Of a stretch of DNA of 6,961 nt, positions 1 through 6,961 are shown in pieces. The notes beneath the pieces are model-generated. The model was not told the DNA's origin and searched no databases. It saw nothing but the letters and a program-made list of their open reading frames with translations. The DNA is from a virus (Duplodnaviria; Heunggongvirae; Uroviricota; Caudoviricetes), in IMG/VR virus record IMGVR_UViG_2531839579_000008; one strand, written 5' to 3'. Within the stretch, counting starts at the first letter, position 1. The number at the start of each line of letters is the position of its first letter. The translations under genes were made by a program, and so were the position numbers.

Positions 1-226
1 TAATTGTATTATCAATAAAATAAAAGCTTGGGCGAGCGCATATAAAGTATATATGGCATTTTGAAAGTTGTTTTTCTTGTTCTAAATTAATTTTTGCATC
101 AGACGTTAGTTGCTGAGCAGTAAGCATCGCTGTAAAACTATTTAAGTATCCAAAAGCAAATTCGTGTATGAATTTTCTTTTCACTCGAAATATCCTCACT
201 AGAAATGAATAATATTGGTTTTTCAT
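1..226 (-). CDS. Hypothetical protein, N-terminal 75 codons only (gene runs off the left edge); candidate accessory/moron gene
   Basis: Reverse-strand frame is open for 75 codons from ATG (complement of 224-226) to position 2, with an in-frame stop (complement of 236-238) just upstream, so this ATG is the first possible start. An uninterrupted frame this long is unusual in DNA of about 30% GC (my count: 26% in 1-100, 35% in 101-200). Translation begins MKNQYYSFLVRIFRVKRKFIHEFAFGYLNSFTAMLTAQQLTSDAKINLEQEKQLSKCH; I recognise no family. No convincing Shine-Dalgarno. Missing from the supplied ORF track probably because it is edge-truncated. Confidence 0.45.
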   Translation of the reverse strand, partial: MKNQYYSFLVRIFRVKRKFIHEFAFGYLNSFTAMLTAQQLTSDAKINLEQEKQLSKCHIYFICARPSFYFIDNTI

Positions 227-555
227 GATAATACTCTATTGATCCTAGACTTACCATTTAAAAAACGAACTGACATGCTCCCGTTGATTAATAAGCTGTA
301 AGGTTAGCAATTCTTTTGGCGTTGAGAACAACTGCGAACTTCCGTTCCTTGCTCAAAGCAGACTGTTAGATTTGATAGCGTTTGGGCTATGTAAGTAGCC
401 AGTTGGAGAATGAGTGAGTGCAAATCAGGACTGGCGGGCGAATTGCCTGCATTTTCTTTATCTGTTGTTTCATCCACTGACCAGCCAGGTCAAATAGCGT
501 CTTATGCTCTGCACAACAGAAAATAGTTGCACCCATTAACCACGGAGTTAAACGG
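227..555. promoter_or_regulatory. Divergent intergenic region; expected to hold the promoter of the reverse-strand ORF and the late promoter of the FI-FII-E-T-U-D operon
   Basis: 329 bp with no ORF of any size worth calling, lying between two divergently oriented genes, and a composition shift from AT-rich (left) to GC-rich (right). Shine-Dalgarno GGAG at 545-548, 7 nt before the FI ATG. I scanned 420-555 for the Ogr-type TGT-N12-ACA dyad of P2 late promoters and found no exact match, so no promoter position is called. Confidence 0.3.
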
Positions 556-1741
556 ATGAGTGACTATCATCATGGCGTGCAGGTGCTGGAGATTAACGAC
601 GGCACCCGCGTCATTTCCACCGTATCCACTGCCATTGTCGGCATGGTCTGCACGGCCAGCGATGCGGATGCGGAAACCTTCCCCCTCAATAAACCGGTGC
701 TGATTACCAATGTGCAAAGCGCAATTGCAAAGGCCGGTAAAAAAGGCACGCTGGCGGCATCGTTGCAGGCCATCGCTGACCAGTCAAAACCGGTCACCGT
801 TGTCGTGCGCGTGGAAGACGGCACCGGTGATGACGAGGAAACGAAACTCGCGCAGACCGTTTCCAATATCATCGGCACCACCGACGAAAACGGTCAGTAC
901 ACCGGACTAAAAGCCCTGCTGGCGGTGGAGTCGGTAACCGGTGTTAAACCGCGTATTCTCGGTGTGCCGGGACTGGACACCAAAGAGGTGGCTGTTGCAC
1001 TGGCATCCGTCTGTCAGAAGCTGCGCGCTTTCGGATATATCAGCGCATGGGGCTGTAAGACCATTTCCGAGGTGAAAGCCTACCGCCAGAATTTCAGCCA
1101 GCGTGAGCTGATGGTCATCTGGCCGGATTTCCTCGCATGGGATACGGTCACCAGTACCACCGCCACCGCGTATGCCACCGCCCGTGCGCTGGGTCTGCGC
1201 GCTAAAATCGACCAGGAGCAGGGCTGGCATAAAACGCTGTCCAACGTCGGGGTAAACGGTGTTACCGGCATCAGCGCATCTGTATTCTGGGATTTGCAGG
1301 AGTCGGCACCGATGCTGACCTGCTTAACGAGTCAGGCGTCACTACGCTGATTCGCCGCGACGGTTTCCGTTCTGGGGTAACCGTACCTGCTCTGATGACC
1401 CGCTGTTCCTCTTTGAAAACTAACCCGCACCGCGCAGGTGTGGCCGACACGATGGCTGAGGCGCACATGTGGGCGGTGGACAAGCCCATCACCGCAACGC
1501 TGATTCGCGACATCGTTGACGGCATCAATGCCAAATTCGTGAGCTGAAAACAAACGGCTATATCGTGGATGCGACCTGCTGGTTCAGCGAAGAATCCAAC
1601 GATGCGGAAACCCTCAAGGCCGGAAAACTGTATATCGACTACGACTATACACCGGTGCCTCCTCTTGAAAACCTGACCCTGCGCCAGCGTATTACCGATA
1701 AATACCTGGCAAATCTGGTCACTTCGGTTAACAGCAATTAA
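556..1741 (+). pseudogene. FI: Tail sheath protein gpFI (P2 family), reading frame interrupted; intact only for 556..1350 (264 aa)
   Basis: N-terminus MSDYHHGVQVLEINDGTRVISTVSTAIVGMVC matches P2 gpFI as I recall it. The ORF stops at 1348-1350, but coding continues in shifted frames: frame 0 (1308-1370) TDADLLNESGVTTLIRRDGFR, frame 2 (1373-1420) WGNRTCSDDPLFLFEN, frame 1 (1423-1440) TRTAQV, frame 0 (1443-1538) ADTMAEAHMWAVDKPITATLIRDIVDGINAKF, frame 2 (1541-1738) ELKTNGYIVDATCWFSEESNDAETLKAGKLYIDYDYTPVPPLENLTLRQRITDKYLANLVTSVNSN, with stop TAA at 1739-1741 overlapping the FII Shine-Dalgarno. Each hop is a -1 step, so five single-base losses near 1305, 1371, 1421, 1440 and 1539. Corrected length would be about 396 aa, the typical sheath size. 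Confidence 0.85.
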
Positions 1742-1753
1742 GGAGCCTGACCG

Positions 1754-2272
1754 ATGGCAATGCCGCGCAAACTCAAGTTAATGAACGTCTTTCTGAACGG
1801 CTACAGCTATCAGGGCGTTGCAAAGTCCGTCACGCTGCCAAAACTGACCCGTAAGCTTGAAAACTATCGCGGTGCGGGGATGAACGGCAGCGCACCGGTA
1901 GACCTCGGCCTTGATGACGATGCGCTGTCAATGGAGTGGTCGCTCGGTGGCTTCCCGGATTCGGTTATCTGGGAGCTTTACGCCGCAACCGGCGTGGATG
2001 CCGTCCCGATTCGTTTTGCAGGCTCTTACCAGCGCGACGATACCGGCGAAACGGTGGCCGTTGAGGTGGTCATGCGTGGACGTCAGAAAGAAATCGACAC
2101 CGGCGAGGGTAAACAGGGAGAAGACACCGAGTCGAAAATCTCCGTGGTCTGCACCTATTTCCGGCTGACGATGGACGGTAAGGAGCTGGTCGAAATCGAC
2201 ACCATCAACATGATTGAGAAGGTGAACGGCGTCGACCGGCTGGAGCAACACCGCCGCAATATCGGCCTGTGA
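1754..2272 (+). CDS. FII: Tail tube protein gpFII (P2 family)
   Basis: Intact 172-aa ORF beginning MAMPRKLKLMNVFLNGYSYQGVAKSVTLPKL, matching P2 gpFII in sequence and length as recalled. Strong Shine-Dalgarno AAGGAG at 1740-1745. Immediately follows the sheath gene as in P2. Confidence 0.9.
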   Translation: MAMPRKLKLMNVFLNGYSYQGVAKSVTLPKLTRKLENYRGAGMNGSAPVDLGLDDDALSMEWSLGGFPDSVIWELYAATGVDAVPIRFAGSYQRDDTGETVAVEVVMRGRQKEIDTGEGKQGEDTESKISVVCTYFRLTMDGKELVEIDTINMIEKVNGVDRLEQHRRNIGL

Positions 2273-2279
2273 TTTTCAT

Positions 2280-2300
2280 CCGGTCAGCCTGGCTGACCGG
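2280..2300 (+). other. Perfect palindrome / stem-loop between FII and E
   Basis: CCGGTCAGCC-T-GGCTGACCGG: two 10-nt arms that are exact reverse complements around a single central T, starting 8 nt after the FII stop. It is followed by TTAACCCC, not a U-run, so it is not a canonical intrinsic terminator. Confidence 0.35.
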
Positions 2301-2328
2301 TTAACCCCGATTCATAAGTGAGAAAACC

Positions 2329-2604
2329 ATGAACAAAGAAAATGTGATTACCCTGGACAATCCGGTCAAACGTGGTGAGCAGGTTATCGAACAGGTCACG
2401 CTGATGAAACCCAGTGCCGGGACGCTGCGCGGTGTCAGTCTGGCAGCGGTCGCAAACTCCGAAGTCGATGCACTGATTAAGGTGTTGCCGCGCATGACGG
2501 CACCGATGCTGACCGAGCAGGAAGTCGCCGCACTGGAACTGCCTGACCTTGTGGCGCTGGCCGGTAAGGTGGTCGGTTTTTTGTCGCCGAACTCGGTGCA
2601 GTGA
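2329..2604 (+). CDS. E: Tail assembly chaperone gpE (P2 family)
   Basis: Intact 91-aa ORF MNKENVITLDNPVKRGEQVIEQVTLMKPSAGTLRGVSLAAVANSEVDALIKVLPRMTAPMLTEQEVAALELPDLVALAGKVVGFLSPNSVQ, matching P2 gpE in sequence and length as recalled. Confidence 0.9.
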   Translation: MNKENVITLDNPVKRGEQVIEQVTLMKPSAGTLRGVSLAAVANSEVDALIKVLPRMTAPMLTEQEVAALELPDLVALAGKVVGFLSPNSVQ

Positions 2605-2756
2605 CGTTCCCGAAAAATCTGTCGGTCGATGACCTGATGGCGGATGTGGCAGTGATATTTCACTGGCCGCCATCAGAACTGTATCCCATGAGCCTGACCG
2701 AACTCATCACATGGCGCGAAAAGGCGCTCCGGCGAAGCGGAAACACGAATGAGTAA
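2329..2756 (+). CDS. E': gpE+E' fusion made by programmed -1 ribosomal frameshift near the 3' end of E
   Basis: Slippery run TTTTTTG at 2577-2583 inside the last codons of E. The -1 frame from 2583 is open to TAA at 2754-2756 and reads VAELGAVTFPKNLSVDDLMADVAVIFHWPPSELYPMSLTELITWREKALRRSGNTNE. Total about 142 aa, the size I recall for P2 E+E'. The E' stop overlaps the T start at 2749. Confidence 0.8.
2577..2583 (+). other. Programmed -1 frameshift slippery site (T6G) for E/E'
   Basis: TTTTTTG heptamer, 20 nt before the E stop codon, with an open -1 frame downstream. This is the arrangement of the conserved tail-chaperone frameshift in P2 (gpE/E') and lambda (gpG/GT). Confidence 0.75.
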
Positions 2757-5174
2757 CAATGTAAAATTACAGGTATTGCTCAGGGCTGTTGACCAGGCAT
2801 CCCGCCCGTTTAAATCCATCCGCACAGCGAGCAAATCGCTGTCGGGGGATATCCGGGAAACACAAAAATCACTGCGCGAGCTGAACGGTCACGCATCCCG
2901 TATTGAGGGATTCGCAAGACCAGTGCACAGCTCGCCGTGACTGGTCATGCACTTGAAAAGGCACGGCAGGAGGCCGAAGCCCTTGCCACACAGTTTAAAA
3001 ACACCGAACGTCCGACACGTGCTCAGGCGAAAGTGCTGGAATCGCAAGCGGCGGCGGAGGACTTACAGGCGAAATATAACCGCCTGACGGATTCCGTTAA
3101 ACGCCAGCAGCGGGAACTGGCCGTTGTGGGAATTAATACCCGCAATCTTGCACATGATGAGCAGGGACTGAAAAACCGTATCAGTGAAACCACCGCCCAG
3201 CTTAACCGGCAGCGTGACGCGCTGGCGCGTGTCAGTGCGCAACAGGCAAAACTTAACGCAGTCAAACAGCGTTATCAGGCCGGAAAGGAACTGGCCGGAA
3301 ATATGGCCTCAGTGGGCGCTGCCGGTGTGGGGATTGCTGCTGCGGGAACGATGGCCGGAGTTAAGTTGCTGATGCCCGGTTATGAGTTTGCGCAGAAAAA
3401 CTCAGAATTGCAGGCTGTGCTCGGTGTGGCAAAAGACTCCGCCGAAATGGCCGCGCTCCGCAAGCAGGCGCGCCAGCTCGGCGACAATACCGCAGCCTCG
3501 GCAGATGATGCAGCCGGTGCGCAGATTATTATTGCGAAAGCCGGTGGGGATGTTGATGCCATTCAGGCGGCAACGCCGGTCACGTTGAATATGGCGCTGG
3601 CGAACCGCCGCACGATGGAAGAAAACGCCGCCCTGCTGATGGGGATGAAATCCGCCTTTCAGCTTTCAAACGATAAGGTCGCTCATATCGGGGATGTTCT
3701 CTCCATGACGATGAACAAAACCGCCGCCGATTTTGACGGTATGAGCGATGCGCTGACCTATGCCGCACCTGTGGCAAAAAATGCCGGTGTCAGCATTGAA
3801 GAAACCGCCGCAATGGTCGGGGCGCTGCATGATGCAAAAATCACAGGCTCAATGGCGGGGACGGGAAGCCGTGCCGTGTTAAGCCGCCTGCAGGCACCGA
3901 CGGGAAAAGCATGGGATGCACTCAAAGAGCTTGGAGTGAAAACCTCAGACAGCAAGGGAAACACCCGGCCAATATTTACCATTCTGAAAGAAATGCAGGC
4001 CAGTTTTGAGAAAAACCGGCTCGGTACTGCCCAGCAGGCTGAATACATGAAAACCATTTTCGGGGAGGAGGCCAGCTCAGCCGCCGCTGTGCTGATGACT
4101 GCCGCCTCAACCGGAAAGCTGGACAAACTGACCGCTGCGTTTAAAGCCTCAGACGGGAAGACCGCAGAGCTGGTAAATATCATGCAGGACAACCTCGGCG
4201 GTGACTTTAAGGAGTTTCAGTCCGCTTATGAGGCGGTGGGGACGACCTGTTTGACCAGCAGGAAGGCGCACTGCGTAATCTCACGCAGACGGCCACAAAG
4301 TATGTGTTAAAACTCGACGGCTGGATCCAGAAAAACAAATCACTGGCGTCAACCATCGGCTCATTGTCGGTGGGCCTGGCCTATTGGTCATCGGTGCCAT
4401 TGGCTGTAGCCTGGCCGGTTATCACGGCATCAATGCCATCATCGCGGCAGCAGGCGCAATGGGGGCATCTTCACGACGGTTGGCAGTGCTGTTATGACGC
4501 CATCGGGGCGATTAGCTGGCCGGTTGTGGCCGTGGTGGCCGCCATTGTCGCCGGGGCGTTGCTTATCCGTAAATACTGGGAGCCTGTCAGCGCATTCTTT
4601 GGCGGTGTGGTGGAAGGGCTGAAAGCGGCATTTGCGCCGGTGGGGGAACTGTTCACGCCACTTAAACCGGTGTTTGACTGGCTGGGCGAAAAGTTACAGG
4701 CCGCGTGGCAGTGGTTTAAAAACCTGATTGCCCCGGTCAAAGCCACCCAGGACACCCTGAACCGTTGCCGTGACACGGGCGTCATGTTCGGGCAGGCACT
4801 GGCTGACGCGCTGATGCTGCCGCTTAATGCGTTCAACAAACTGCGCGGCGGTATTGACTGGGTACTGGAAAAACTCGGCGTCATCAACAAAGAGTCAGGC
4901 ACGCTTGACCAGACCGCCGCCAGAACTCATGCCGCCACGTATGGCACCGGTGGTTATATTCCGGCGACCAGCTCTTATGCAGGTTATCAGGCTTATCAGC
5001 CGGTCACGGCACCGGCTGGCCGCTCTTATGTAGACCAGAGTAAAAACGAATATCACATCACCTGACGGGGGTACTCGCCGGGGAACAGCTCGACCGCCAG
5101 TTACAGGATGCCTCGAAAAATACGAGCGGGATAAACGTGCGCGCGCCCGTGCCAGCATGATGCATGACGGTTAA
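2749..5174 (+). pseudogene. T: Tail tape measure protein gpT (P2 family), reading frame interrupted at several points
   Basis: N-terminus MSNNVKLQVLLRAVDQASRPFKSIRTASKSL matches P2 gpT as recalled. The track splits the gene into 2749..2940 (frame 1), 2937..4310 (frame 0) and 4304..5065 (frame 2). Frame hops: near 2913 (IEGF then RKTSAQLAVTGHAL in the next frame); near 4244 (EAVGT then LFDQQEGALRNLTQTATKYVLKLDGW); three hops in 4362-4499 within a hydrophobic segment; near 5062 and 5112, after which frame 0 reads LEKYERDKRARARASMMHDG to TAA at 5172-5174, which overlaps the U Shine-Dalgarno AAGGAGG (5173-5179). Corrected length about 810 aa, against about 815 aa recalled for P2 gpT. Confidence 0.85.
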
Positions 5175-5188
5175 GGAGGTGACGAAAA

Positions 5189-5662
5189 ATGATGCTCGCG
5201 TTAGGTATGTTTGTTTTTATGCGCCAGACGCTGCCACACCAGACCATGCAGCGTGAATCAGATTATCGCTGGCCGTCAAATTCCCGTATCGGTAAACGGG
5301 AGCTTTCAGTTTCTCGGTGTGGGAGGAAAACATCACGCTTGCCGGTGTGCTTTATCCCGACTGACCGGCGGAAGCTGACGATGACCACGCTCAGGCTGAT
5401 GGCAGAGGAAGGCCGGGCGTGGCCGTTGCTGGATGGCACCGGCATGATTTACGGCATGTATGTCATCAGCAGGGTGAGTGAAGCAGGGAGTATTTTCTTT
5501 GCAGACGGCACACCCCGAAAAATTGATTTTACGCTGTCGCTTACCCGCGTTGATGAATCACTGGCCGCGCTTTATGGCGATATCGGTAAACAGGCGGAAT
5601 CGCTCATCGGTAAGGCTGGCAGTATGGCGACTAAATTCACGGGTATGACGGGGGCGGGATAA
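5189..5662 (+). CDS. U: Tail protein gpU (P2 family); full-length frame but with an internal 25-aa stretch that appears to be read out of frame
   Basis: 157-aa ORF with Shine-Dalgarno AAGGAGG at 5173-5179. The N-terminus MMLALGMFVFMRQTLPHQTMQRESDYRWPSNSRIGKR and the C-terminus KLTMTTLRLMAEEGRAWPLLDGTGMIYGMYVISRVSEAGSIFFADGTPRKIDFTLSLTRVDESLAALYGDIGKQAESLIGKAGSMATKFTGMTGAG match P2 gpU as recalled. The middle segment ELSVSRCGRKTSRLPVCFIPTDRR (5300-5371) is Arg/Cys-rich, while the other two frames over the same bases read FQFLGVG, EENITLAGVLYP and LTGG. Confidence 0.85.
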   Translation: MMLALGMFVFMRQTLPHQTMQRESDYRWPSNSRIGKRELSVSRCGRKTSRLPVCFIPTDRRKLTMTTLRLMAEEGRAWPLLDGTGMIYGMYVISRVSEAGSIFFADGTPRKIDFTLSLTRVDESLAALYGDIGKQAESLIGKAGSMATKFTGMTGAG

Positions 5663-6825
5663 TGCTGGATGCGCTGACATTTGATGCAGGCAGTACGCTG
5701 ACGCCGGATTACATGCTGATGCTCGACAGCAGGGATATTACCGGCAATATCAGCGACCGTCTGATGAGCATGACCCTGACGGATAACCGGGGCTTTGAGG
5801 CTGACCAGCTTGATATTGAACTGAACGATGCCGACGGGCAGGTCGGGCTACCGATTCGTGGCGCTGTCCTGACGGTGTATATCGGCTGGAAAGGTTTTGC
5901 CCTGGTATGCAAAGGGAAATTTACCGTTGATGAGGTTGAACACCGGGGCGCGCCGGATGTGGTTACCATCCGCGCCCGGAGTGCAGATTTCCGCGGGACG
6001 CTTAATTCCCGCCGGGAAGGCTCCTGGCATGACACCACGCTCGGTGCGATTGTTGAGGCGATAGCCTCCCGTAACAAGCTGGAGGCCAGTGTCGCTCCGT
6101 CACTGGCCGGAATTAAAATCCCGCACATCGACCAGTCGCAGGAGTCTGATGCGAAATTCCTGATCCGTCTTGCTGAACGCAACGGCGGTGAGGTGTCGGT
6201 AAAAATGGGAAAACTGTTGTTTCTTAAGGCGGGGCAGGGGGTGACGGCCAGCGGTAAAAAAATCCCGCAGATTACCATCACCCGCAGCGACGGCGACCGT
6301 CATCATTTTGCGATTGCTGACCGTGGAGCCTACACCGGTGTAACGGCAAAATGGCTACACACCAAAGACCCGAAGCCTCAAAAGCAGAAGGTAAAACTGA
6401 AACGTAAAAAGAAAGAGAAACACCTGCGCGCACTGGAGCACCCGAAAGCGAAACCGGTCAGGCAGAAGAAAGCGCCTAAAGTACCGGAAGCGCGTGAAGG
6501 TGAATACATGGCCGGTGAGGCTGACAACGTTTTTGCCCTGACCACGGTATATGCCACGAAAGCACAGGCCATGCGTGCCGCTCAGGCGAAGTGGGATAAG
6601 CTGCAACGGGGTGTAGCGGAGTTCTCCATCAGCCTGGCTACTGGTCGGGCAGATATTTACACGGAAACACCGGTTAAAGTGTCAGGCTTTAAGCGCGTCA
6701 TAGACGAGCAGGACTGGACAATCACTAAGGTGACACATTTTCTGAATAACAGCGGCTTCACGACGTCCCTGGAGCTTGAGGTCAGGCTTTCTGATGTGAA
6801 GTACGAAACAGAAGATGATGAGTGA
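5662..6825 (+). CDS. D: Tail protein gpD (phage late control gene D family, P2 family)
   Basis: Intact 387-aa ORF MLDALTFDAGSTLTPDYMLMLDSRDITGNISDRLMSMTLTDNRGFEADQLDIELNDADGQ, matching P2 gpD in sequence and length as recalled. Its start overlaps the U stop (TAATG at 5660-5664). Contains the lysine-rich basic stretch typical of gpD. Confidence 0.9.
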   Translation: MLDALTFDAGSTLTPDYMLMLDSRDITGNISDRLMSMTLTDNRGFEADQLDIELNDADGQVGLPIRGAVLTVYIGWKGFALVCKGKFTVDEVEHRGAPDVVTIRARSADFRGTLNSRREGSWHDTTLGAIVEAIASRNKLEASVAPSLAGIKIPHIDQSQESDAKFLIRLAERNGGEVSVKMGKLLFLKAGQGVTASGKKIPQITITRSDGDRHHFAIADRGAYTGVTAKWLHTKDPKPQKQKVKLKRKKKEKHLRALEHPKAKPVRQKKAPKVPEAREGEYMAGEADNVFALTTVYATKAQAMRAAQAKWDKLQRGVAEFSISLATGRADIYTETPVKVSGFKRVIDEQDWTITKVTHFLNNSGFTTSLELEVRLSDVKYETEDDE

Positions 6826-6906
6826 TGTTTTGTTTTTATCTGTTTGTTTTATAAGGATAAATTAACTAAAATGGCACCATCAACAAAACCGGAAGAGGTG
6901 CTCGCG
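6826..6906 (+). promoter_or_regulatory. D-ogr intergenic region, presumed to carry the ogr promoter and ribosome-binding site
   Basis: 81-bp AT-rich spacer containing a TATAAG -10-like hexamer at 6850-6855 and a Shine-Dalgarno AAGAGG (about 6893-6898) 8 nt before the ATG at 6907. I could not find a well-spaced -35 element, and there is no GC-rich hairpin after the D stop. Confidence 0.3.
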
Positions 6907-6961
6907 ATGTTTCATTGTCCTTTATGCCAGCATGCCGCACATGCGCGTACAAGTCGCTATA
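6907..6961 (+). CDS. ogr: Ogr zinc-finger late-gene transcriptional activator, 5' end only (runs off the right edge)
   Basis: Translation from ATG 6907 reads MFHCPLCQHAAHARTSRY, which is the N-terminus of P2 Ogr as I recall it and includes the CxxC zinc-binding motif. It sits directly after D as in P2. An in-frame ATG at 6871 would add 12 residues (MAPSTKPEEVLA) but has a poorer ribosome-binding site. Confidence 0.85.
   Translation, partial: MFHCPLCQHAAHARTSRY

Follow-up and report, generated by a model that had tools for sequence, protein, structure and literature searches.

The region at positions 5050–5174 is most probably the ordinary 3′ end of a P2-type tape-measure gene T, in which the reading frame was broken by an artefact of a mixed or collapsed P2-like consensus; judging from the sequence, we give this reading a probability of about 0.9. 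The organism itself almost certainly has T as an uninterrupted frame of 815 codons, ending in ...ASMMHDG at a TAA stop codon (5172–5174). The window, i.e., the whole stretch of 6961 bp that was analyzed, is identical to an entire NCBI draft contig, AQBU01000162.1 (assembly GCA_000358575.2), and carries the tail operon FI-FII-E/E′-T-U-D of a P2-like (Peduovirus) prophage (Table 1). FII, E and D are intact in the window.

On the right, the contig ends within ogr: the start of ogrK in L001, a prophage of the E. coli ETEC strain 120899, maps to ≈6907 of the window, and a called 39-aa "gene" (6844..6961) runs past the contig end. On the left, positions 1–350, upstream of FI, are absent from L001, the closest overall relative. 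This flank is 100% identical in only six of 5426 complete E. coli genomes (e.g., strain 05-3629), where it falls within a gene for a hypothetical protein, encoded on the other strand. When we searched for a complete genome matching the window, none of these six genomes was found to belong to the L001 group. The flank is a variable, moron-like region and shows that the contig end enters haplotype-specific sequence.

Table 1. Features of the window and of the missing bases within it.
Feature	Position	Strand	Remark
Sheath gene FI, in three pieces	556–1741		
Gap patch in FI	1302–1537		
Tube gene FII	1754–2272		
E	2329–2604		
E′	2601–2756		
T, complete tape-measure gene of a P2-like prophage	2749–5174	+	815-aa T in references
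Gap patches in T	2910–3050, 4243–4498, 5060–5111		
Last T fragment called as a gene	4304..5065	+	253 aa
Dropped base 1	5060..5061	+	Column A/G, Asn/Ser codon; panel A18/G59; L005 A, L003/L048/L007 G
Dropped base 2	5069..5070	+	Column C/T, synonymous Gly codon; panel C30/T44/G3
Dropped base 3	5075..5076	+	Column A/G, Thr/Ala codon; panel G73/A4
Dropped base 4	5084..5085	+	Column T/C, Ile/Thr codon; panel C73/T4
Dropped base 5	5111..5112	+	Column A/G, synonymous Ala codon; panel A7/G70
Last 20 authentic T codons (LEKYERDKRARARASMMHDG) and stop TAA (5172–5174)	5112..5174	+	Same as P2 and L001 C-termini
U ribosome-binding site AAGGAGG (5173–5179), overlapping the T stop, and U start ATG (5189–5191)	5173..5191	+	
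U	5189–5662	+	Called as an open 157-aa ORF
Gap patch in U	5301–5371		
D	5662–6825		
ogr, start only	right end of window		

T had been called as three separate ORFs, 2749..2940, 2937..4310 and 4304..5065, leaving its last 36 codons uncalled. The third of these ends ...NEYHIT at TGA 5063–5065, as described in the first-pass annotation, and follows the authentic T frame at 4499–5060 only. The annotation proposed that T continues beyond this stop, first in frame 1 (5062–5112) and then in frame 0, to end at the TAA at 5172–5174. Both translations were correct, giving LTGVLAGEQLDRQLQDA for the first segment and LEKYERDKRARARASMMHDG followed by the stop for 5112–5174, and the homologues examined end at the same place. 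The sequence MMHDG, named by the annotation as the gpT C-terminus, does indeed close the canonical P2 protein (NC_001895, ...ASMMHDG), whose C-terminus reads ...NEYHISLTGGTAPGTQLDRQLQDALEKYERDKRARARASMMHDG. When the stitched peptide was aligned with the last 61 residues of P2 gpT (NP_046782.1), 56 of the 61 were identical, and all mismatches were confined to a scrambled stretch. Over positions 4700–5400, the window is 97.2% identical in DNA to Peduovirus P2 records, and the match of the T 3′ end is not due to chance, since DNA identity of 97–98% is found to the T/U junction of 74 phage and 1576 E. coli records.

The organization of the T/U junction leads to the same result. The gene follows E/E′ and precedes U and D, as expected for P2 T, and its stop lies inside the Shine–Dalgarno sequence of U: the TAA is contained within TAAGGAGG, 14 nt before the U ATG at 5189, an overlap that had been correctly predicted. 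The 32-nt junction CATGACGGTTAAGGAGGTGACGAAAAATGATG is identical in the window, in P2 and in the intact L001 prophage. Stopping T at 5065 would leave a 123-bp spacer before U, which the annotation rightly doubted, as T ends 14 nt before U in all homologues examined. None of the annotated homologues that were checked stops at the equivalent of 5065 with a real spacer before U.

The nature of the breaks themselves turned out to be different from what had been proposed. The annotation described two frame hops, and the net result is indeed two frame changes, but alignment to intact relatives showed that five single bases are physically missing, after positions 5060, 5069, 5075, 5084 and 5111. Nor are the hops a property of gene T: they are consensus dropouts in one draft contig, and the homologues are without them. 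The true reading is CAC ATC A[A/G]C CTG ACG GG[C/T] GGT ACT [A/G]CG CCG GGG A[T/C]A CAG ... GAT GC[A/G] CTC GAA. The false stop at 5063–5065 is an out-of-frame triplet that arises because the first loss causes A[A/G]C CTG ACG to be read as ACC TGA. Loss of the second base creates a run of five G at 5067–5071. Losses two to four add up to −3, or one codon, which is why the frame-1 reading looks continuous; they turn the six residues GGT(T/A)PG(I/T) into the five residues GVLAGE. The middle residues VLAGE of the annotation's frame-1 reading are thus garbled from GT(T/A)PG(I/T), with one residue lost. The fifth loss shifts the frame again.

The same type of lesion occurs throughout the contig. 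In alignment with L001, the window has 33 bases missing and none inserted, in five patches, and none of the 33 missing bases falls in a homopolymer run. A homopolymer-type error, as in 454 or nanopore data, was rejected on these grounds. T alone is 2426 nt in the window and 2448 nt in intact relatives, i.e., 22 bases are missing from it, in four patches. As deposited, it does not form a single frame of ≈815 codons, and does so only when the gaps are refilled, whereupon it encodes an 815-aa protein with no internal stop and 811 of 815 residues identical to the L001 protein. We attribute the interrupted frame to the assembly and not to the gene. Similarly, FI is split into ORFs 556..1350, 1395..1547 and 1565..1741 by five one-base dropouts (after 1302, 1369, 1422, 1440 and 1537), three of which are common to two related draft contigs, L003 and L048. 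U has lost six single bases and stays open because these sum to two codons, yielding 157 aa instead of 159. The losses scramble some 23 residues in its interior, from KRDAFQFLGVGEENITLAGVLYPELTGGK to KRELSVSRCGRKTSRLPVCFIPTDRRK; the protein still matches Pfam GpU, and an identical scrambled protein is found on the L003 contig (AQCC01000104.1).

We then compared the positions of the missing bases with the variation among related phages. From IMG/VR, 80 P2-like loci were collected, of which the 76 without deletion-only patterns served as the panel. A column was considered polymorphic if the minor allele was seen at least twice, which applied to 17% of the panel columns. In the blastn placement of the gaps, polymorphic columns accounted for 24 of the 33, against this background of 17% (Fisher's exact test, p = 2e-12), and 28 of 33 did so if a shift within a run of the same base was allowed. 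The other nine bases in the blastn placement all adjoin a polymorphic column, except for the base missing after 5371; where a missing base directly adjoins such a column, the placement of the gap is ambiguous. All five gaps at 5060–5111 are on polymorphic columns of the 76-locus panel. In the patch at 4360–4405, removing every column that differs between L001 and L003 yields the window string, GGTGGGCCTGGCCTATTGGTCATC, exactly.

Several other draft contigs show the same deletion-only pattern. The numbers of missing and inserted bases were 26 and 0 in L003, 14 and 0 in L005 (IMGVR_UViG_2531839586_000013), 9 and 0 in L048 (IMGVR_UViG_2537561685_000016) and 2 and 0 in L007. L003 has an intact 815-aa T despite its 26 missing bases. 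At the five columns in 5060–5111, L005 has A,C,A,T,A, as does L001, while L003, L048 and L007 have the P2-like alleles G,T,G,C,G, and in the window each of them is a gap; related assemblies thus resolved the same columns to one allele, to the other, or to no base, as would be expected of a consensus drawn from two haplotypes occurring together. The gap sets of the window and its sister contigs lie at polymorphic columns and overlap partly, without being nested. The dropouts in L003, L005, L048 and L007 suggest that one systematic consensus problem affected a whole batch of assemblies. Separately, L011 and L030, two P2-like loci from IMG/VR, each carry a clean 9-nt in-frame deletion in T (at L001 positions 5259–5267 and 5785–5793, respectively); unlike the single-base dropouts, these seem to reflect true variation in tape-measure length.

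Database searches gave no sign of the gapped sequence outside the contig. The window DNA is 97–98% identical to 74 phage records, P2 included, and to prophages in ≈1560 of 5426 complete E. coli genomes, and its gaps are shared by none of the 74 phage and 1576 E. coli records. Over positions 4700–5400, the best identity was 98.2%, which amounts to the gap count and a couple of SNPs, and the 50 best matches listed all span 712 nt for the 701 nt of the query. Neither IMG/VR nor the GTDB species representatives (one genome per species) contained an exact match to a 42-mer that covers four of the five gaps, so the gapped form does not circulate as an allele. In a search covering 153 billion gene positions, AQBU01000162.1 was the only contig with the broken 253-aa fragment.

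Missing bases on columns where relatives differ, and absent from the homologues, are what we observe; they are best explained by a contig consensus built from reads of at least two slightly different P2-like sequences. In consensus calling from a multiple alignment or partial-order graph, a mismatch may become two alternative columns, each of which is half gaps, and an allele that does not beat the gap leads to no base being emitted. Wherever the versions differ and neither base wins the vote, the consensus would thus lack a base, and the outcome would be isolated one-base deletions exactly at polymorphic sites. The likeliest source would be two P2-like prophages of one genome, collapsed into one contig, in which case two alleles should be present in the sample, at doubled depth. 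Such a collapse is plausible because the closest complete E. coli genomes hold two to three P2-like copies each. The contig is short and consists mostly of the tail-gene region common to P2-like prophages, with 350 bp of unshared left flank; together with the copy number in the closest genomes, this agrees with the collapse of a repeat. The signature, and with it the verdict, would be no different for a mixed culture or for merged assemblies.

Identifying the parental sequences was less successful. From end to end, runs of A-like sequence, B-like sequence and gaps alternate in the window as a mosaic, which supports a mixed consensus. Painting it with two parental haplotypes, either L001 and L003 or L001 and L086, left 34–41 sites explained by neither. 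Haplotypes that paint the window cleanly were not among the pairs tried, which counts against a collapse. The top matches listed for the L003-type T did not include the second P2-like copy of ETEC strain 120899.

The first alternative to a consensus artefact is that the window comes from a cryptic prophage in which T, FI and U truly accumulated one-base deletions. FI and T each have several breaks, and U is open but scrambled, as might be expected of decaying genes, and nine of the window's dropouts (three in FI and six in U) are shared with L003, as inherited mutations would be. In principle, these nine could be real mutations of common descent, although most of them are on or beside polymorphic columns. 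However, decay gives no reason for 33 deletions and no insertions to fall on columns that are polymorphic in other phages. Lesions from decay should be nested among relatives and independent of polymorphism elsewhere, whereas those found here overlap without nesting, with an allele in one assembly against a gap in another, which is not compatible with descent. Furthermore, nonsense substitutions, larger deletions and IS elements are all absent from the window, its FII, E and D genes are undamaged, and the broken 253-aa T fragment occurs in no other assembly. We consider real pseudogenization to be improbable.

Slightly less probable still are random sequencing errors in low-quality or low-coverage stretches, with no mixture of haplotypes. 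The gaps are clustered in patches, as in low-quality regions, and the window is contig 162, of 6961 bp, in a draft assembly of many small contigs. Random errors would nevertheless not be expected to fall on polymorphic columns in 24 to 28 of 33 cases when the expectation is 17%, nor would they be deletion-only and outside homopolymers, or hit the same columns again when assemblies are made independently.

The losses might also be real but connected to recombination, if gene conversion had taken place between two P2-like prophages of the same cell and each mismatch in the heteroduplex had cost a base when it was processed. We regard this as very unlikely; if true, the gaps would be a mutational signature of inter-prophage recombination, with different subsets in sister isolates. 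One genuine −1 frameshift site does exist in the tail operon, upstream in E/E+E′ (GGTTTTTTG at 2575–2583). A similar programmed frameshift or other recoding in T is scarcely credible and was refuted, since all homologues examined, P2 included, are single-frame here at 97–98% DNA identity, no slippery heptamer (X XXY YYZ) is present at 5060, 5069, 5075, 5084 or 5111, the only G5 run (5067–5071) exists through the dropped C/T, and ribosomes would have to shift by −1 five times in a row over 52 nt.

The window T is thus an already known P2 gene on a contig with consensus errors, and its frame breaks are not biological. The relevance of this result is limited to annotation: FI, T and U on AQBU01000162.1 look frameshifted or scrambled through consensus dropouts, and it would be wrong to list them as pseudogenes, as cases of recoding or as novel short ORFs. 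Nothing new is learned about tape-measure proteins or P2 biology. As a practical matter, one-base gaps that occur without insertions, on columns where relatives are polymorphic, serve as a flag for collapsed near-identical repeats in draft assemblies.

In position between E/E′ and U, the window T resembles the gene for bacteriophage P2 gpT (NP_046782.1; NC_001895, 19850–22297), the tail length tape-measure protein. P2 gpT has 815 aa, as does the window protein once the gaps are filled, and the two have the C-terminus ...LEKYERDKRARARASMMHDG in common. P2 T is intact, whereas the window gene lacks 22 single bases, five of them in 5060–5111. The closest match in a complete genome is L001 (NZ_CP025916.1, T = WP_000069946.1), which is 98.0% identical over 351–6961 with gaps counted and has the gene order FI-FII-E-E′-T-U-D-ogr, as in the window. 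It differs from the window in being free of gaps, with A,C,A,T,A at the columns in 5060–5111, and in lacking the flank 1–350.

Draft errors from collapsed repeats or mixed haplotypes are single-base and deletion-only and occur exactly where the copies differ, as the gaps in the window do, and the choice of allele varies among assemblies of related isolates, as it does here; the window is assigned to this class by its sequence signature. The −1 frameshift of P2 E/E+E′ belongs to the same operon and is outwardly similar to the T breaks, with two overlapping ORFs (2329..2604 and 2601..2756). The T-rich slippery sequence in this overlapping pair is conserved and undamaged in the window; we take it to be the programmed −1 frameshift site of the P2 E/E+E′ tail assembly chaperone. 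E/E′ has a conserved slippery sequence and a two-frame layout in every homologue examined; the breaks in T lack a slippery sequence, and no homologue examined shows them. E/E′ is the only real two-frame feature of the window's tail operon.
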